This document shows, piece after piece, positions 1-13,880 of a stretch of DNA of 64,000 nucleotides (the stretch's first letter is position 1; each line of letters begins with the position of its first letter). The translations under genes and the position numbers were made by a program. The notes below the pieces were generated by a model. That model was not told where the DNA came from. It saw only the letters and a list, made by a program, of their open reading frames with translations, and did not search any database. Origin of the DNA: a virus; the UHGV virus genome UHGV-0171999. The stretch is one strand, 5' to 3'.

Positions 1-2683
1 GGGTAATTGCTATAAATCCAAATCCTACTGGATGAACAAAACGAATAACGTCAGATTTCCAACGGGAAGAAGGCAAATTGGATTTAATTTTCATTACATA
101 ATATGATCGACTTCTATTAATATAGTCTATATTATTTTGAAGCAAATCCTTTCCTTTAACCCCACGAATAATTTCGCCTTCAAAACTAGGAAGTCTTTCT
201 GCTTTAACTTCTTGACCGGCAATTAATCTTCCCAAAAGATTATGAATAGTTACGGTCCATTGCAATTTACCATTAGAATAGCTTCTTTCTATATAAGTAA
301 CATTGCATCTTCCTGTAGCTGTATAAATCGTTTGTCCTACTAAGTCTTCAGTCAAAGAATCAGATTGAACGATTATATCATATTCAGTACCAGCCCCAGA
401 TTCGATTTCAATTTCAACTTCTTCATTATAAAGAACTTTAAAAAGAAATTTGTATGATGCTTCAATTCCTTTAGTAGAATAAAAATCATAGCTACGTGAT
501 TCGAAAAATCTTGCAACAGCATCGCGTTTGTCAGCATTTAAATAAATGTTTCTTTTATATATCTCTGACCACAAATATTCCCATGCATGCTCTTCTCGCG
601 GATATTTGTTACGAATTAAATTTCGTAAATTGTTATACTGAGTTCCATATCCATCAGAAAGATACTGAATATATGCTTCGCAAAATGCCTCAAAATTCGA
701 ATCCTGTAGCAAGTAAGAATCAGGCATCATTGTGCCAATCAATGGTCTTAAATCAGGGTCAGCTAATCCACGCTCTTCTTCAGGCGACCAAGGGGTTTCA
801 TGCTCTTGGTTTTGTAAAAATGCTTTTAAAAATACTTCAGTTGGCTTCCAAATAATTTCGACAGTGTCTCTAACACGATAATTAAAATCATAGTAAGAAA
901 TTATTTCACCGGAGGCTTTATAGAAAAGCATCCCAGATGCATATTTTTTAAATCCAGTGAATTTAACATTTGGCATTACTATAGTGCAATCGCCATCATC
1001 CCAGTATTCATGAACTAATCTATCTGGTGATGTTTCCGGAATATTTTCTATAACTTTAGTGTATTTTAAATCAGCATAAACTACTACAACCCTATCAGAG
1101 TTGTTTATCCAACAACGCGTGTTAGATTTTTTAGACCAGTTAAAGAATGGTTCAGCGTAGTATTTCATCGGCTGAGGAGTAAAAGTTTCCCAATCAGACT
1201 TTTCATCTGCTATAAATGCCATCATATGATAATGCTTATCAGCTAGCCATTCACGAGGAAATTCATATTTAACGGCACCGATTAACTGATATTTTGCCGC
1301 AGTTTCAGGGTCATCAACAACATTATCACTTAAAAATTTAAAATTACTCGATGATAGAGAAACTAATTTACCATCAGTTGACATATTCGCATACCCTGGT
1401 TGAATACGTCTTCTTTCTTCTTCAGTGTTGCCAAAAACTCTTTTCCATGTTTTTGTGTCATGATTTAAAACATATATTCCTTTATCAACAGAATCAATTA
1501 TTTTTGATGTTCTAGGATTAGCATTTAATGTTTCAACTTCACCAATAATAAGAGCAAAAACTTTATCACCGACAGAATCCATTTTATAGCATACTGCTTT
1601 AGGATTTCCGGTTATAGTCATTGTATCAGGTTCAAAAAGCCTTTCAGAATATGTTGGAGATAATGGGTCAGAATCTATAGGTGCATTACTCGTTTTTATG
1701 TATCTAACTTTGTCTCTGGCAACAACGTAAATGTAATCATCGGTGCAAGTAATAGCTTCTGCAATGCGATATACATTCGCTGGTAAAGTCGCGTAAGTGG
1801 CAAAAATTTCTACATCAAATCCTAAATGTAATTGGTCGCCAAGTTTAGCAAATGTTATATCCTGTGAACTGAATCTGACATCGTCAGCTGACCATCTAAC
1901 ATCAGTCGATTTGCGGCCATAGAAAATCTTGTCGTATCCTAGAACGTATGTTGTGTTCGCAGATTGGTAATATACTGTCTTAGATAAAGGATATCCTACG
2001 CGGTCATTGAAGAGCTTTACAGCTTTCCAGGTTTGTCCTTTATCATTAGATACTTTAACTACAGGTTGATAACGCTCAAAAAGATATAGAATCCCTTCTG
2101 ATTCCATCAAATAAACTCGGTTAATATCCTTACATACTTGTTGAATAGAACCTTGTATTTCATGATACTCATTTTCACCAATAATAAAATTACTTATTGA
2201 TGAAACATCAACATATGATGGACTGAATTGAAAAGATTCATTCATCAATGCAGCCATTATAGTGTCATTATTAAAATTGACATAATCAGAATTATTAAGA
2301 GTAAATTTTTCCTGAATGAATTTATTGGCTAATTGCATTTCAATCATGTTTTGAAATGTATAAGCATTTGTAGCAAAAGTTTCAAACTCTTCGGTATAAA
2401 TCCAATCAGACTGCTCAAAATCTTGCGCAGCTGTAGCTACTCTGATAATGTATGATGTCAATGGGTCAGCATCATCAAAAAAGAAGCTGTTATTTGCAGT
2501 ATATCCTAAGTTAATCCATCTGTATTGATTACTCGGGAGATTTTCCCCCGAGTTTGTTTTTGTCTCAGCGATTTCTACAAAATAGTAGAAATTAGCACCA
2601 ACGTCATCCCAGCGTACTTGCACCTGATTTGCGGATAACTTGGAAATTCTGAGACTAGTGACTGAAGGTGCTTTTACTGTCAT
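1..2683 (-). CDS. 7: baseplate wedge protein gp7, partial (start codon at 2683, 3' end beyond window start)
   Basis: Reverse-complement from 2683 reads MTVKAPSVTSLRISKLSANQVQVRWDDVGANFYYF; open to position 1; ATGA overlap with gene 6 stop; synteny 6-7. Confidence 0.85.
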   Translation of the reverse strand, partial: MTVKAPSVTSLRISKLSANQVQVRWDDVGANFYYFVEIAETKTNSGENLPSNQYRWINLGYTANNSFFFDDADPLTSYIIRVATAAQDFEQSDWIYTEEFETFATNAYTFQNMIEMQLANKFIQEKFTLNNSDYVNFNNDTIMAALMNESFQFSPSYVDVSSISNFIIGENEYHEIQGSIQQVCKDINRVYLMESEGILYLFERYQPVVKVSNDKGQTWKAVKLFNDRVGYPLSKTVYYQSANTTYVLGYDKIFYGRKSTDVRWSADDVRFSSQDITFAKLGDQLHLGFDVEIFATYATLPANVYRIAEAITCTDDYIYVVARDKVRYIKTSNAPIDSDPLSPTYSERLFEPDTMTITGNPKAVCYKMDSVGDKVFALIIGEVETLNANPRTSKIIDSVDKGIYVLNHDTKTWKRVFGNTEEERRRIQPGYANMSTDGKLVSLSSSNFKFLSDNVVDDPETAAKYQLIGAVKYEFPREWLADKHYHMMAFIADEKSDWETFTPQPMKYYAEPFFNWSKKSNTRCWINNSDRVVVVYADLKYTKVIENIPETSPDRLVHEYWDDGDCTIVMPNVKFTGFKKYASGMLFYKASGEIISYYDFNYRVRDTVEIIWKPTEVFLKAFLQNQEHETPWSPEEERGLADPDLRPLIGTMMPDSYLLQDSNFEAFCEAYIQYLSDGYGTQYNNLRNLIRNKYPREEHAWEYLWSEIYKRNIYLNADKRDAVARFFESRSYDFYSTKGIEASYKFLFKVLYNEEVEIEIESGAGTEYDIIVQSDSLTEDLVGQTIYTATGRCNVTYIERSYSNGKLQWTVTIHNLLGRLIAGQEVKAERLPSFEGEIIRGVKGKDLLQNNIDYINRSRSYYVMKIKSNLPSSRWKSDVIRFVHPVGFGFIAIT

Positions 2684-10519: not shown

Positions 10520-11216
<697 letters not shown>

Positions 11217-12606: not shown

Positions 12607-12679
12607 TGGGAATTAGCCAAGTTGGTAAGGCACTGGATTTTGATTCCAGGATGCAAAGGTTCGAGTCCTTTATTCCCAG
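12607..12679 (+). tRNA. tRNA-Gln (anticodon UUG)
   Basis: Cloverleaf by eye: acceptor tgggaat/attccca, anticodon loop ttTTGat, T-loop TTCGAGT. Confidence 0.8.
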
Positions 12680-12680
12680 C

Positions 12681-12767
12681 GCGAGAATGGTCAAATTGGT
12701 AAAGGCACAGCACTTAAAATGCTGCGGAATGATTTCCTTGTGGGTTCGAGTCCCACTTCTCGCACCA
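12681..12767 (+). tRNA. tRNA-Leu (anticodon UAA), long variable arm, CCA encoded
   Basis: Acceptor gcgagaa/ttctcgc, anticodon loop ctTAAaa, T-loop TTCGAGT, ends ACCA. Confidence 0.8.
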
Positions 12768-12772
12768 AATTT

Positions 12773-12846
<74 letters not shown>

Positions 12847-12856
12847 ATTTAATTTA

Positions 12857-12931
12857 CTCCGTGTAGCTCAATGGCAGAGCGATCGCCTGTTAAGCGATTG
12901 GTTATAGGTTCGAATCCTATCACGTCCGCCA
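12857..12931 (+). tRNA. tRNA-like element, anticodon GUU (Asn), three mismatches at the acceptor-stem end; possible pseudo-tRNA
   Basis: D-arm GCTC/GAGC, anticodon stem atcgc/gcgat with loop ctGTTaa, T-arm atagg-TTCGAAT-cctat, 3' GCCA; 5' ctccgtg pairs with 3' cacgtcc at only 4 of 7 positions. Confidence 0.4.
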
Positions 12932-12935
12932 AATC

Positions 12936-13011
12936 CGAGGCATAGCTCAGAAGGAAGAGCAAGGACCTTCTAAGTCCTAGGTCGTAGGTTCGATCCCTAC
13001 TGCCTCGACCA
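12936..13011 (+). tRNA. tRNA-Arg (anticodon UCU), CCA encoded
   Basis: Acceptor cgaggca/tgcctcg, anticodon loop ctTCTaa, T-loop TTCGATC, ends ACCA. Confidence 0.8.
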
Positions 13012-13027: not shown

Positions 13028-13378
13028 ATGAAAGGTAATGTTTATTTAGTAGTTCATGATTTAACGTTCTATTTTAATCACAATGACACTGTTATTTCTG
13101 AACGTGTAATTAATTTGCTTTATCAGCATGCAGATTATGTTTATGTCGAAAACGAATATGGTCATTGGCAATTTCTCAAAAATCGTTCATTTGGTTTAGA
13201 TGGTTACGAATACTTTGAACGTAAAGACCTTTTAGATAAAATTCCGTTATCTACACAATATCAAAATCATAAGTCTTTATATAAATGCCGTCCAATTCGA
13301 AATGCTGAATCCGCGTATGAAGCAATTGATTTATGGCGTAAACGCCGTGAACAGATTGATTCTTTAAAAGAATATTAA
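13028..13378 (+). CDS. hypothetical protein
   Basis: 116-aa ORF with SD gtgagga upstream, immediately after tRNA-Arg. Confidence 0.5.
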   Translation: MKGNVYLVVHDLTFYFNHNDTVISERVINLLYQHADYVYVENEYGHWQFLKNRSFGLDGYEYFERKDLLDKIPLSTQYQNHKSLYKCRPIRNAESAYEAIDLWRKRREQIDSLKEY

Positions 13379-13379
13379 G

Positions 13380-13718
13380 AAACCGGGTCGCTACCGGTAA
13401 GTCGTCGGACTGATGTTCCCTGCGTAAGGACTGGCATTAACAAATCTTTACGATCTGTTAATGTCCCCTTACATCACAGCAGAAACGGCGCACAGAATTA
13501 TCGATTCGAGGAAATATCTTTGCCGTAAGCCGAGTAGCGTTTTTGACGGAACGTTCGGATATGGTCGAGATATGGCCTTTTAAAAATATTGAGTAGCGTC
13601 AACTGCTTAATAACCGGGTTCGAATCCCGGCGTTTCGTACAAACACTTGCCTTAGCAGGTGGAACCCCGACAAGGTTGCCGCAAGGCTTAGCCCCGACCA
13701 AAAGGTTGGGGCTTTTTG
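13380..13718 (+). ncRNA. putative stable small RNA region (species 1/2, rnaC/rnaD-like), ends in an intrinsic terminator
   Basis: About 340 nt with no credible ORF; contains tRNA T-arm-like ccgggTTCGAATcccgg near 13613-13629 and terminator hairpin plus T-run near 13690-13718; T4 has stable RNAs next to its tRNA cluster. Confidence 0.35.
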
Positions 13719-13850
13719 GTATCTAGGCCTTTCTGGACCTCTCTAGGCATCATTTAGTTTCTACCCTTTATAATATATTATCCTATCCTTTAATTGCCCC
13801 TTTCATCCCTAGAATTCCCTAAAACTTTTTAAAAAATTTTTCACAAAACT

Positions 13851-13880
13851 GTTTACACCCCTGTTCTTCCATGGTACTAT
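13851..13880 (+). promoter_or_regulatory. early promoter
   Basis: GTTTACA, 17 bp, TGgTACTAT; AT-rich upstream. Confidence 0.6.

Follow-up and report, generated by a model that had tools for sequence, protein, structure and literature searches.

We analysed the region at positions 13380–13718 of a 64,000-nucleotide (nt) stretch of the virus genome UHGV-0171999; this whole stretch is referred to as the window. The region is very probably the distal end of a T-even transfer RNA (tRNA) operon, in which the genes for two small stable RNAs, rnaD and rnaC, are followed by a structured trailer and an intrinsic terminator, and for which we infer the transcript and the steps of the mechanism. The locus is already known; its identification is correct and leaves the general picture unchanged. 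Neither rnaC nor rnaD has an Rfam family, and no function has been assigned to them since they were sequenced in the 1970s. The comparative models described here make the question of their function directly testable.

Identification of the rnaD–rnaC locus

The region 13380–13718 matched 806 phage records in a blastn search, 680 of which cover at least 80% of the query. The corresponding sequence of phage ime09 is 99.5% identical. The match to T4 covers 100% of the query with 94.4% identity and runs end to end with positions 70809–71145 of MT984581. The genes annotated under this full-length match are rnaD (small, stable RNA; species 2 RNA) and rnaC (species 1 RNA), in agreement with the sequence-only reading of the window, which had proposed equivalence to this T4 locus. 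In the GiZh record, rnaC and a terminator are annotated at the equivalent place. The window phage is T4-like (Tequatrovirus). Coordinates of both RNAs were transferred from the T4 annotation via its alignment with the window. Identity to T4 is 86.7% for rnaD, 98.6% for rnaC (137 of 139 positions) and 97.5% for the trailer. The rnaD core, AAGTCGTCGGACTGATGTTCCCTG and ...CACAGCAGAAACGGCGCAC, is identical to that of T4, which makes the window sequence a homologue of the annotated T4 gene. The locus contains the following features.

13375..13494, plus strand: rnaD (species 2 stable RNA) homologue, 120 nt (T4 annotation mapped by alignment)
13495..13500, plus strand: spacer GAAUUA between rnaD and rnaC, 6 nt (AAAUUA in T4)
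13501..13639, plus strand: rnaC (species 1 stable RNA) homologue, 139 nt, predicted tRNA-like four-way junction (T4 homology and comparative model)
13640..13689, plus strand: 3' trailer with an invariant 7-base-pair (bp) hairpin (13644–13661) and two small hairpins (RNAalifold, eight homologues)
13690..13717, plus strand: intrinsic terminator of the tRNA/rnaD/rnaC unit (terminator scan)

The delimitation given by the sequence-only reading holds for the region as a whole, except at its start: by T4 homology rnaD begins at 13375, 5 nt upstream of 13380, and overlaps the upstream stop codon. The absence of a credible open reading frame (ORF) was borne out, as only mechanical frames of 40, 45 and 67 amino acids (aa) lie between the stop of the ORF 13028–13378 and the T-run 13713–13717. 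The suggested Rfam search gave nothing at gathering score in the region; at E <= 10 it returned only chance-level matches there, the best to tRNA-Sec (16.6 bits), others to isrK, RT-6 and similar families. ARAGORN finds neither a tRNA nor a transfer-messenger RNA (tmRNA) in the region, so the possibility that it encodes standard tRNAs after all is not realised. The folding and covariance analysis proposed at the same time gave a positive result, since both RNAs fold beyond shuffled sequence and the rnaC helices covary. The fold stability z-scores are -4.55 for rnaC and -3.71 for rnaD, with none of 200 shuffles as stable.

Predicted structure of rnaC

The rnaC set includes 26 distinct sequences from Tequatrovirus, Karamvirus, Kanagawavirus, Winklervirus, Tegunavirus and uncultured contigs. 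The helices agree among RNAalifold, the single-sequence minimum-energy fold and a hand-built model. In this model 91.5% of the alignment cells form standard pairs, compared with 35–45% when the partners are slid by 1–3 columns; 26 pairs have changes on both sides, and none of 500 shuffles attains the observed values. The elements of the model are given below, with nt 1 of rnaC at window position 13501.

13502..13508 with 13631–13637 (rnaC 2–8 with 131–137), plus strand: acceptor stem, CGAUUCG with CGUUUCG, with a conserved tandem U.U mismatch
13509..13578, plus strand: arm 1, an invariant D-stem-like AGG/CCU followed by P2b, P3 and P4
rnaC 9–11 with 76–78, plus strand: P2a, invariant AGG/CCU, 3 bp
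rnaC 14–18 with 69–73, plus strand: P2b, covarying
rnaC 22–27 with 60–65, plus strand: P3, covarying
rnaC 30–33 with 55–58, then a GUA bulge, then 37–42 with 49–54, plus strand: P4, covarying
13543..13548, plus strand: loop 1, UUGACG, the apical loop of arm 1, exact complement of loop 2
13587..13612 (rnaC 87–96 with 103–112), plus strand: arm 2, a 10-bp hairpin at the anticodon-arm position, with double changes in 8 of 10 pairs
13597–13602, plus strand: loop 2, CGUCAA, 6 nt, the apical loop of arm 2
13614..13630 (rnaC 114–118 with 126–130), plus strand: T arm, CCGGG-UUCGAAU-CCCGG, all cells paired

The comparative model thus predicts that rnaC is a tRNA-like cloverleaf, or four-way junction, composed of an acceptor stem of 7 (perhaps 8) bp, a canonical T arm and a 3-bp analogue of the D stem. 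A helical insertion of about 60 nt is predicted to replace the D loop, and a 10-bp arm the anticodon arm. The third acceptor pair (4–135) is GC in 16 and AU in 10 of the 26 sequences, and in TG1 and the contig locus L037 the stem is a perfect 7-bp helix (CGGUCCG/CGGACUG). Position 1 (13501) is mostly U; in four sequences it is A, which then pairs with the invariant U138 and hints at an eighth acceptor pair. The T-arm-like motif ccgggTTCGAATcccgg, noticed previously from the sequence, is present at 13614–13630 and belongs to rnaC. Its stem pair 116–128 is UA in 13 sequences, GC in 12 and AU in one, and its 3' strand abuts the acceptor 3' strand, as in tRNA. Arm 1, of about 24 bp as counted by eye, exists in three unrelated versions (the T4 type, KaAlpha, and the PEi20/L029 types).

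Part of the tRNA elbow may also have a counterpart in rnaC. A GG dinucleotide at rnaC 74–75 (13574–13575) stands just 5' of the P2a 3' strand, at the position of tRNA G18/G19. It is present in all 23 sequences whose T-loop starts with NUC; the three sequences with the T-loop UGCAU (LC53, CIP9 and L043) have CG instead. The combination of G74 with U120 is thereby replaced by C74 with G120, while G75 and C121 remain invariant. This pattern is suggestive of a contact between G74/G75 and the T-loop that resembles the tRNA elbow. If the contact is real, rnaC would be best described as a tRNA with an insertion of a helix of about 60 nt in the D loop and with a 10-bp hairpin as its anticodon arm. In full, the unusual T-loop reads UGCAUCC or UGCAUGC, not UUCGAAU, in Serratia phage LC53 (L022) and in the CIP9-like loci L026, L041 and L043.

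Complementary apical loops of rnaC

The two apical loops of rnaC, 13543–13548 and 13597–13602, are exact reverse complements of each other at all six positions in 26 of 26 sequences. The loop pair is UUGAUG/CAUCAA in TG1 and L037 and UUGGCG/CGCCAA in the loci L029–L031, which makes two independent double substitutions. Counted over the 26 sequences, loop pairs changed on both sides from AU to GC three times and from CG to UA twice. The L029 group was found by a scan of IMG/VR whose pattern left the loops unconstrained. Both loops are exactly 6 nt long and closed by covarying pairs (e.g. 42–49), and the probability that two loops of this length are complementary at random is about 2e-4. In KaAlpha and in the PEi20/L029 group the interior of arm 1 is unrelated in sequence, and the loop and the arm length of about 24 bp are kept despite this replacement, which points to a geometric constraint.

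Being complementary and co-varying across homologues, these loops qualify as a putative kissing pair. Contact within one molecule would lock the two arms together in a closed ring, which would need sharp bends at the internal loops and the bulge. Contact between molecules would join them head to tail as dimers or multimers, an outcome that end-to-end stacking of the two arms, in the manner of the tRNA D and anticodon arms, would produce. Helix lengths alone do not separate the two possibilities. We found no prior description of the loop complementarity in the literature searched, which excluded the classic T4 papers. A metagenome scan for rnaC variants returned 29 loci, of which about 13 were true rnaC with no new loop variant among them and the rest were G+C-rich chance matches. 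The 9-mer GAGTAGCGT occurs twice in rnaC, at 13532–13540 and 13591–13599, as the 5' strands of P4 and arm 2; this repeat suggests that the two hairpins arose by internal duplication.

Structure and distribution of rnaD

For rnaD, consensus and single-sequence folds together with the alignment of 24 homologues, including that of phage W70, predict a 5' hairpin followed by a rod-like hairpin with invariant internal loops at its base and a variable apex.

13382..13398, plus strand: hairpin H1, ACCGG-GUCGCUA-CCGGU, with a 5-bp stem and a 7-nt loop, 4 of 5 pairs compensatory
13403..13490, plus strand: long hairpin with basal stem S1, an invariant purine-rich internal loop, S2 and a variable apical stem

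Stem S1 is formed by CGUCG (13403–13407) and CGGCG (13486–13490); its last pair is GC in 21 sequences and CG in three. Double changes are seen in 13 pairs overall, among them three pairs of S2 and five of S3. Paired cells make up 97% of the model, compared with 30–54% in slid alignments, in an alignment that was fitted to the model and hence leans towards it. The apical stem exists in at least four sequence types, and the window has the GiZh/ime09 variant. The invariant internal loop was also compared by eye with the consensus of the kink-turn (k-turn), and it does not fit.

A covariance model of rnaD, R1, built from 14 sequences, gives the window copy 133 bits and detects divergent copies in Karamvirus and Kanagawavirus loci. 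A copy found by blastn lies directly after a tRNA in Escherichia phage W70, a member of the Vequintavirinae (L018 2497–2592). Another, from a pattern scan of viral contigs, is located in the tRNA array of a 153-kb contig (L080, about 10644–10732). The presence of rnaD beside tRNAs outside Straboviridae, or at least outside genomes of Tevenvirinae size, suggests horizontal movement of this module between tRNA arrays.

A published adaptive mutation falls into the variable apex. All three BW-1 lines evolved on ECOR34 have one single-nucleotide polymorphism (SNP) in common, which is in rnaD, and virulence on ECOR34 increased from 0.17 to 0.98 (PMC12685909). The SNP (OR125554.1 position 164264, locus L044) maps to A>G on the rnaD strand, at the bracketed A of CACAG-UUUUA-CU[A]UG. 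T2, IME537, IME540 and KNP5 have G at this position; the equivalent part of the window is around 13440–13460. The change restores a C-G pair of the apical hairpin CACAG-UUUUA-CUGUG of T2-type rnaD, so that the SNP can be read as the repair of an rnaD helix, and this repair supports a structure-dependent and host-dependent role of rnaD. The restored base pair is not mentioned in PMC12685909.

rnaC and rnaD as independent modules

In most Karamvirus loci, in Tegunavirus and in Winklervirus rnaC is located between tRNAs, and the AAUUA of the rnaD–rnaC spacer is also found directly 5' of rnaC where a tRNA is upstream, for example in Karamvirus. The Dhakavirus phages JS10 (L003 1496–1700), C6 (L016) and IME540 (L017) retain rnaD and the trailer with the terminator, and rnaC is precisely absent: the rnaD end ...GCGCACAG is joined directly to AACACTTGCC.... 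The two RNAs are thus independent modules, each being found in or next to the tRNA arrays of phages without the other. Pairing of the two RNAs with each other was considered and rejected, as only 5 nt are complementary (the rnaD H1 loop and rnaC UAGCG) and the RNAs occur independently. No host or prophage copy of the RNAs of this locus turned up among 5,426 complete E. coli genomes. A scan of 185,579 species genomes, made with the rnaD-core pattern only and not for rnaC, gave a single G+C-rich chance match without the structure.

Trailer, terminator and neighbouring genes

The sequence from the rnaC 3' end to the end of the region (13718) forms a 79-nt trailer that includes the terminator. The hairpin with a T-run that had been seen at the end of the region is a 10-bp G+C-rich stem at 13690–13713, with seven G-C pairs, followed by TTTTT; it lies outside the mature RNAs and is a Rho-independent terminator of the operon. 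One of its pairs is changed from C-G to G-C in Dhakavirus, and the trailer is kept in JS10 and C6, both without rnaC. The heptamer CCCCGAC occurs twice in the trailer (13665–13671 and 13692–13698), and the terminator 3' strand GGTTGGGG could take the upstream copy as its partner instead of the downstream one. This alternative gains relative strength in phiE142 and JS10, whose downstream copy is a weaker CTTCC. Further downstream, the promoter expected from the sequence-only reading has a counterpart in a promoter-like TTTACA-17-TACTAT with an extended TG at 13852–13880. Several relatives, namely ime09 (L007 1889–2362), KNP5 and IME537, have an extra 474-bp ORF directly 3' of the terminator, which is present in neither the window nor T4.

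Upstream of rnaD the window contains the following genes.

12607–12846, plus strand: tRNA-Gln, tRNA-Leu and tRNA-Gly
12860–12924, plus strand: damaged tRNA-Asn
12936–13011, plus strand: tRNA-Arg
13028–13378, plus strand: 116-aa ORF (phrog_3355, no assigned function), between tRNA-Arg and rnaD

The order of tRNAs (12607–13011), ORF, rnaD, rnaC and terminator is like that of T4 and GiZh. The earlier placement of the region after a tRNA cluster therefore stands, with the qualification that the 116-aa ORF intervenes, as it does in T2, ime09 and BW-1; the ORF is also present in IME537 and KNP5. It is absent from T4 and GiZh, where tRNA-Arg abuts rnaD (with a gap of 1 nt in T4). Because its stop codon overlaps the rnaD 5' end, 3' processing of tRNA-Arg cannot produce the 5' end of rnaD in the window phage.

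The tRNA-Asn(GUU) gene at 12860–12924 has lost its first three acceptor pairs: the 5' strand is CTCCGTG, compared with GGATGTG in GiZh, T2 and ime09, and the 3' acceptor strand is CACGTCC. ARAGORN misses the gene, and the Rfam match is limited to model positions 4–67. It is probably a pseudo-tRNA left by a deletion of the Pro, Ser, Thr, Ile/Met and Tyr tRNAs between the Gly and Asn genes.

Possible processing and function

In T4, RNAC accumulates late in infection, as seen on a northern blot (PMC9697503). The function of both RNAs is stated to be unknown in papers of 2010, 2022 and 2025 (PMC3014915; also PMC9697503 and PMC12685909). In our search for work on the structure or function of species 1 and 2 RNAs we found only such statements, the classic T4 papers being outside its reach.

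Judging from the tRNA-like frame of rnaC, the position in tRNA arrays and the T4 literature, rnaC and rnaD would be co-transcribed with the tRNAs and excised by tRNA-processing enzymes of the host. The acceptor/T minihelix of rnaC could be the site of action of ribonuclease (RNase) P, the ends may be trimmed by RNase E and 3' exonucleases, and the products would persist through their compact folding. We speculate that rnaC acts as an anticodon-less tRNA mimic that binds or titrates a factor recognizing the acceptor, T arm or elbow of tRNA, and that rnaD contributes to growth on particular hosts. A decoy or titration function is a speculative candidate, possible and still rather improbable. More doubtful is a detailed version of it, in which the rod in place of the rnaC D loop pairs with the anticodon-equivalent loop, forming a ring or multimers that display acceptor arms. 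Host factors or immune nucleases with affinity for the acceptor, T arm or elbow of tRNA would be captured by this decoy or sponge, and rnaD would be a host-range determinant.

Several points weigh against this interpretation of the locus. The acceptor stem of rnaC is interrupted by the conserved tandem U.U mismatch, and rnaC is not followed by an encoded CCA; nor is rnaD in the window, where CACAGAA follows compared with CACCAAA in T4. For the elbow contact there are one or two events, from lineages with an entirely altered T-loop, and for the kissing interaction two compensatory events, most sequences being invariant there. The roles given to RNase P and RNase E come only from T4 literature of the 1970s–80s. 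Finally, to our knowledge, T4 mutants with the tRNA region deleted grow on laboratory strains, which makes any function of rnaC and rnaD conditional.

Alternative explanations

Misannotation is recurrent at this locus in GenBank, where tRNA-Lys or tRNA-Met is placed over rnaC and hypothetical proteins over both rnaC and rnaD; covariation backs none of them. An unusual real tRNA of 94–95 nt, a class-II-like tRNA-Lys(UUU) or, in a relative, tRNA-Met, would occupy the 3' two thirds of rnaC and have a 9-bp acceptor stem of ACGGAACGU (13546–13554) with GCGUUUCGU (13630–13638), i.e. rnaC 46–54 with 130–138. This tRNA is annotated as tRNA-Lys(ttt) in G4507 (L027 373–466) and as tRNA-Met in id4496 (L025 447–541), and also in G2133 and G4500; CUUUUAA at 13577–13583 resembles a tRNA-Lys anticodon loop, and the Rfam tRNA-Sec model (RF01852) aligns weakly to 13546–13638 (E = 3.1). 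The score of that alignment, however, is far under the gathering score of 47, and in 13375–13718 there is neither an ARAGORN call nor a match to RF00005. The 9-bp stem has no compensatory pairs: pair 49–135 is A.C in 9 of 16 sequences, three consecutive pairs of the nine (4–6) are non-standard in TG1, and KaAlpha lacks the 5' strand. The U-to-C change at rnaC 135 covaries instead with rnaC 4, in the true acceptor stem (AU in 10 sequences, GC in 16). The supposed anticodon lies in the unpaired linker 79–86, which varies freely (UUUUA, UUUGA, UUCUA, UUACA, UUCAU) and has no flanking stem. The tRNA-Lys(ttt), tRNA-Met and tRNA-Sec-like readings are thus contradicted by covariation, and a real tRNA at this place is extremely improbable. 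We give the same very low credence to small proteins encoded by the ORFs 13461–13583 (plus strand, 40 aa), 13589–13726 (plus strand, 45 aa) and 13498–13701 (minus strand, 67 aa). These frames exist mechanically, and hypothetical protein features overlap the match in many GenBank records, but no reading frame remains open through rnaC in every one of the 26 homologues, a stop interrupts the 67-aa frame in T4 and T2, and the substitutions preserve RNA helices and do not follow a codon-position pattern. In T4, the products seen on the northern blot are RNAs (PMC9697503). A reading of rnaC as a mini-ORF or as tmRNA-like (GAGGA followed by UUG CCG UAA) was also rejected, as this sequence is not conserved in KaAlpha or PEi20, and GAGG is paired in P2a.

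The remaining alternatives accept the RNAs and differ on what they do. The locus could lack any function in trans and constitute a cis-acting 3' end of the operon, with processing punctuation, exonuclease barriers and a terminator, the RNAs being stable by-products and perhaps decayed tRNA genes. Its location at the end of, or inside, tRNA arrays and the tRNA-like frame of rnaC, as a degenerate tRNA would have, agree with this view, as does the clean absence of rnaC from Dhakavirus phages; we also know of no phenotype on laboratory hosts. It is less easily reconciled with unpaired and loop nucleotides that are invariant in sequence across five genera, with kissing loops and an arm 1 length that persist where arm 1 has been replaced, and with modules that moved independently into different tRNA arrays, including that of a Vequintavirinae phage. 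The convergent adaptive SNP that restores an rnaD pair as virulence on ECOR34 rises (PMC12685909) also argues against it, and we consider a purely cis-acting role unlikely. Still less likely is base pairing of rnaC, rnaD or both as regulatory small RNAs (sRNAs) with host or phage messenger RNAs via conserved loops. Such loops do exist with invariant sequence, namely UUGACG and CGUCAA in rnaC and GUUCCCUG and the CAGAAAC region in rnaD, and both RNAs are called small regulatory RNAs, without evidence, in PMC9697503. The rnaC loops are nevertheless complementary to each other and change together, which indicates mutual pairing rather than an external target. A terminator hairpin with a U-tail, as is typical of Hfq-dependent sRNAs, is also missing from the mature RNAs, because the terminator lies 50 nt past the rnaC 3' end.

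Comparison with known systems

The window locus shares with T4 the gene order of tRNA-Arg ... rnaD, 6-nt spacer, rnaC, trailer and terminator, as well as RNA lengths of about 120 nt (the T4 gene is also given as 118 nt) and 139 nt. It differs from T4 by the 116-aa ORF after tRNA-Arg, the GiZh/ime09-type apex of rnaD, and CACAGAA in place of CACCAAA.

Compared with canonical tRNA (RF00005), only the acceptor stem and T arm of the region are tRNA-like, and the region as a whole does not qualify as one. Like tRNA, the predicted rnaC fold has a four-way junction and a 7-bp acceptor directly adjoining a 5-bp T stem, whose loop is UUCGAAU. Its GG changes together with T-loop position 2, comparable to G18/G19 and Psi55/C56 of tRNA, and rnaC is likewise located in tRNA arrays. 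In contrast to tRNA, it has no anticodon arm of 5 bp and 7 nt; a helical insertion stands for the D loop, an 8-nt linker follows the D-stem analogue, the variable loop is represented by 1 nt, and the tandem U.U and the missing CCA are further differences. Nor does rnaC belong with tRNA-Sec and its long acceptor, given the weak Rfam score and no covariation of the stem.

The tRNA-like domain of tmRNA and the tRNA-like modules of YrlA, the Y-RNA-like RNAs of bacteria and phages, belong to stable non-coding RNAs that keep a tRNA-processed acceptor/T-arm minihelix while the remainder of the molecule does something else. Unlike these, rnaC has neither a conserved G3.U70 nor a tag frame, its equivalent of pair 3–70 is G-C or A-U, and it is far smaller than tmRNA. 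ARAGORN reports no tmRNA, and Rfam gives no match to tmRNA or Y RNA at E <= 10 in the region.

The tRNA-Lys of phage T5 neutralizes PARIS as a decoding-competent phage tRNA that replaces the cleaved host tRNA (PMC11464382). The locus resembles such anti-defence tRNAs in that a phage-encoded tRNA-shaped RNA resides in tRNA arrays and in a host-dependent benefit, as suggested by the BW-1 SNP in rnaD (PMC12685909). It differs from them in that rnaC lacks an anticodon and rnaD does not have the shape of a tRNA.

The predicted loop–loop contact of rnaC has its closest counterparts here in TAR–TAR* and in ColE1 RNA I/RNA II, which are fully complementary 6-nt loop–loop complexes. The rnaC loops are likewise 6 nt long, complementary at all six positions and flanked by covarying closing pairs; in contrast to these systems, both loops belong to one 139-nt RNA.

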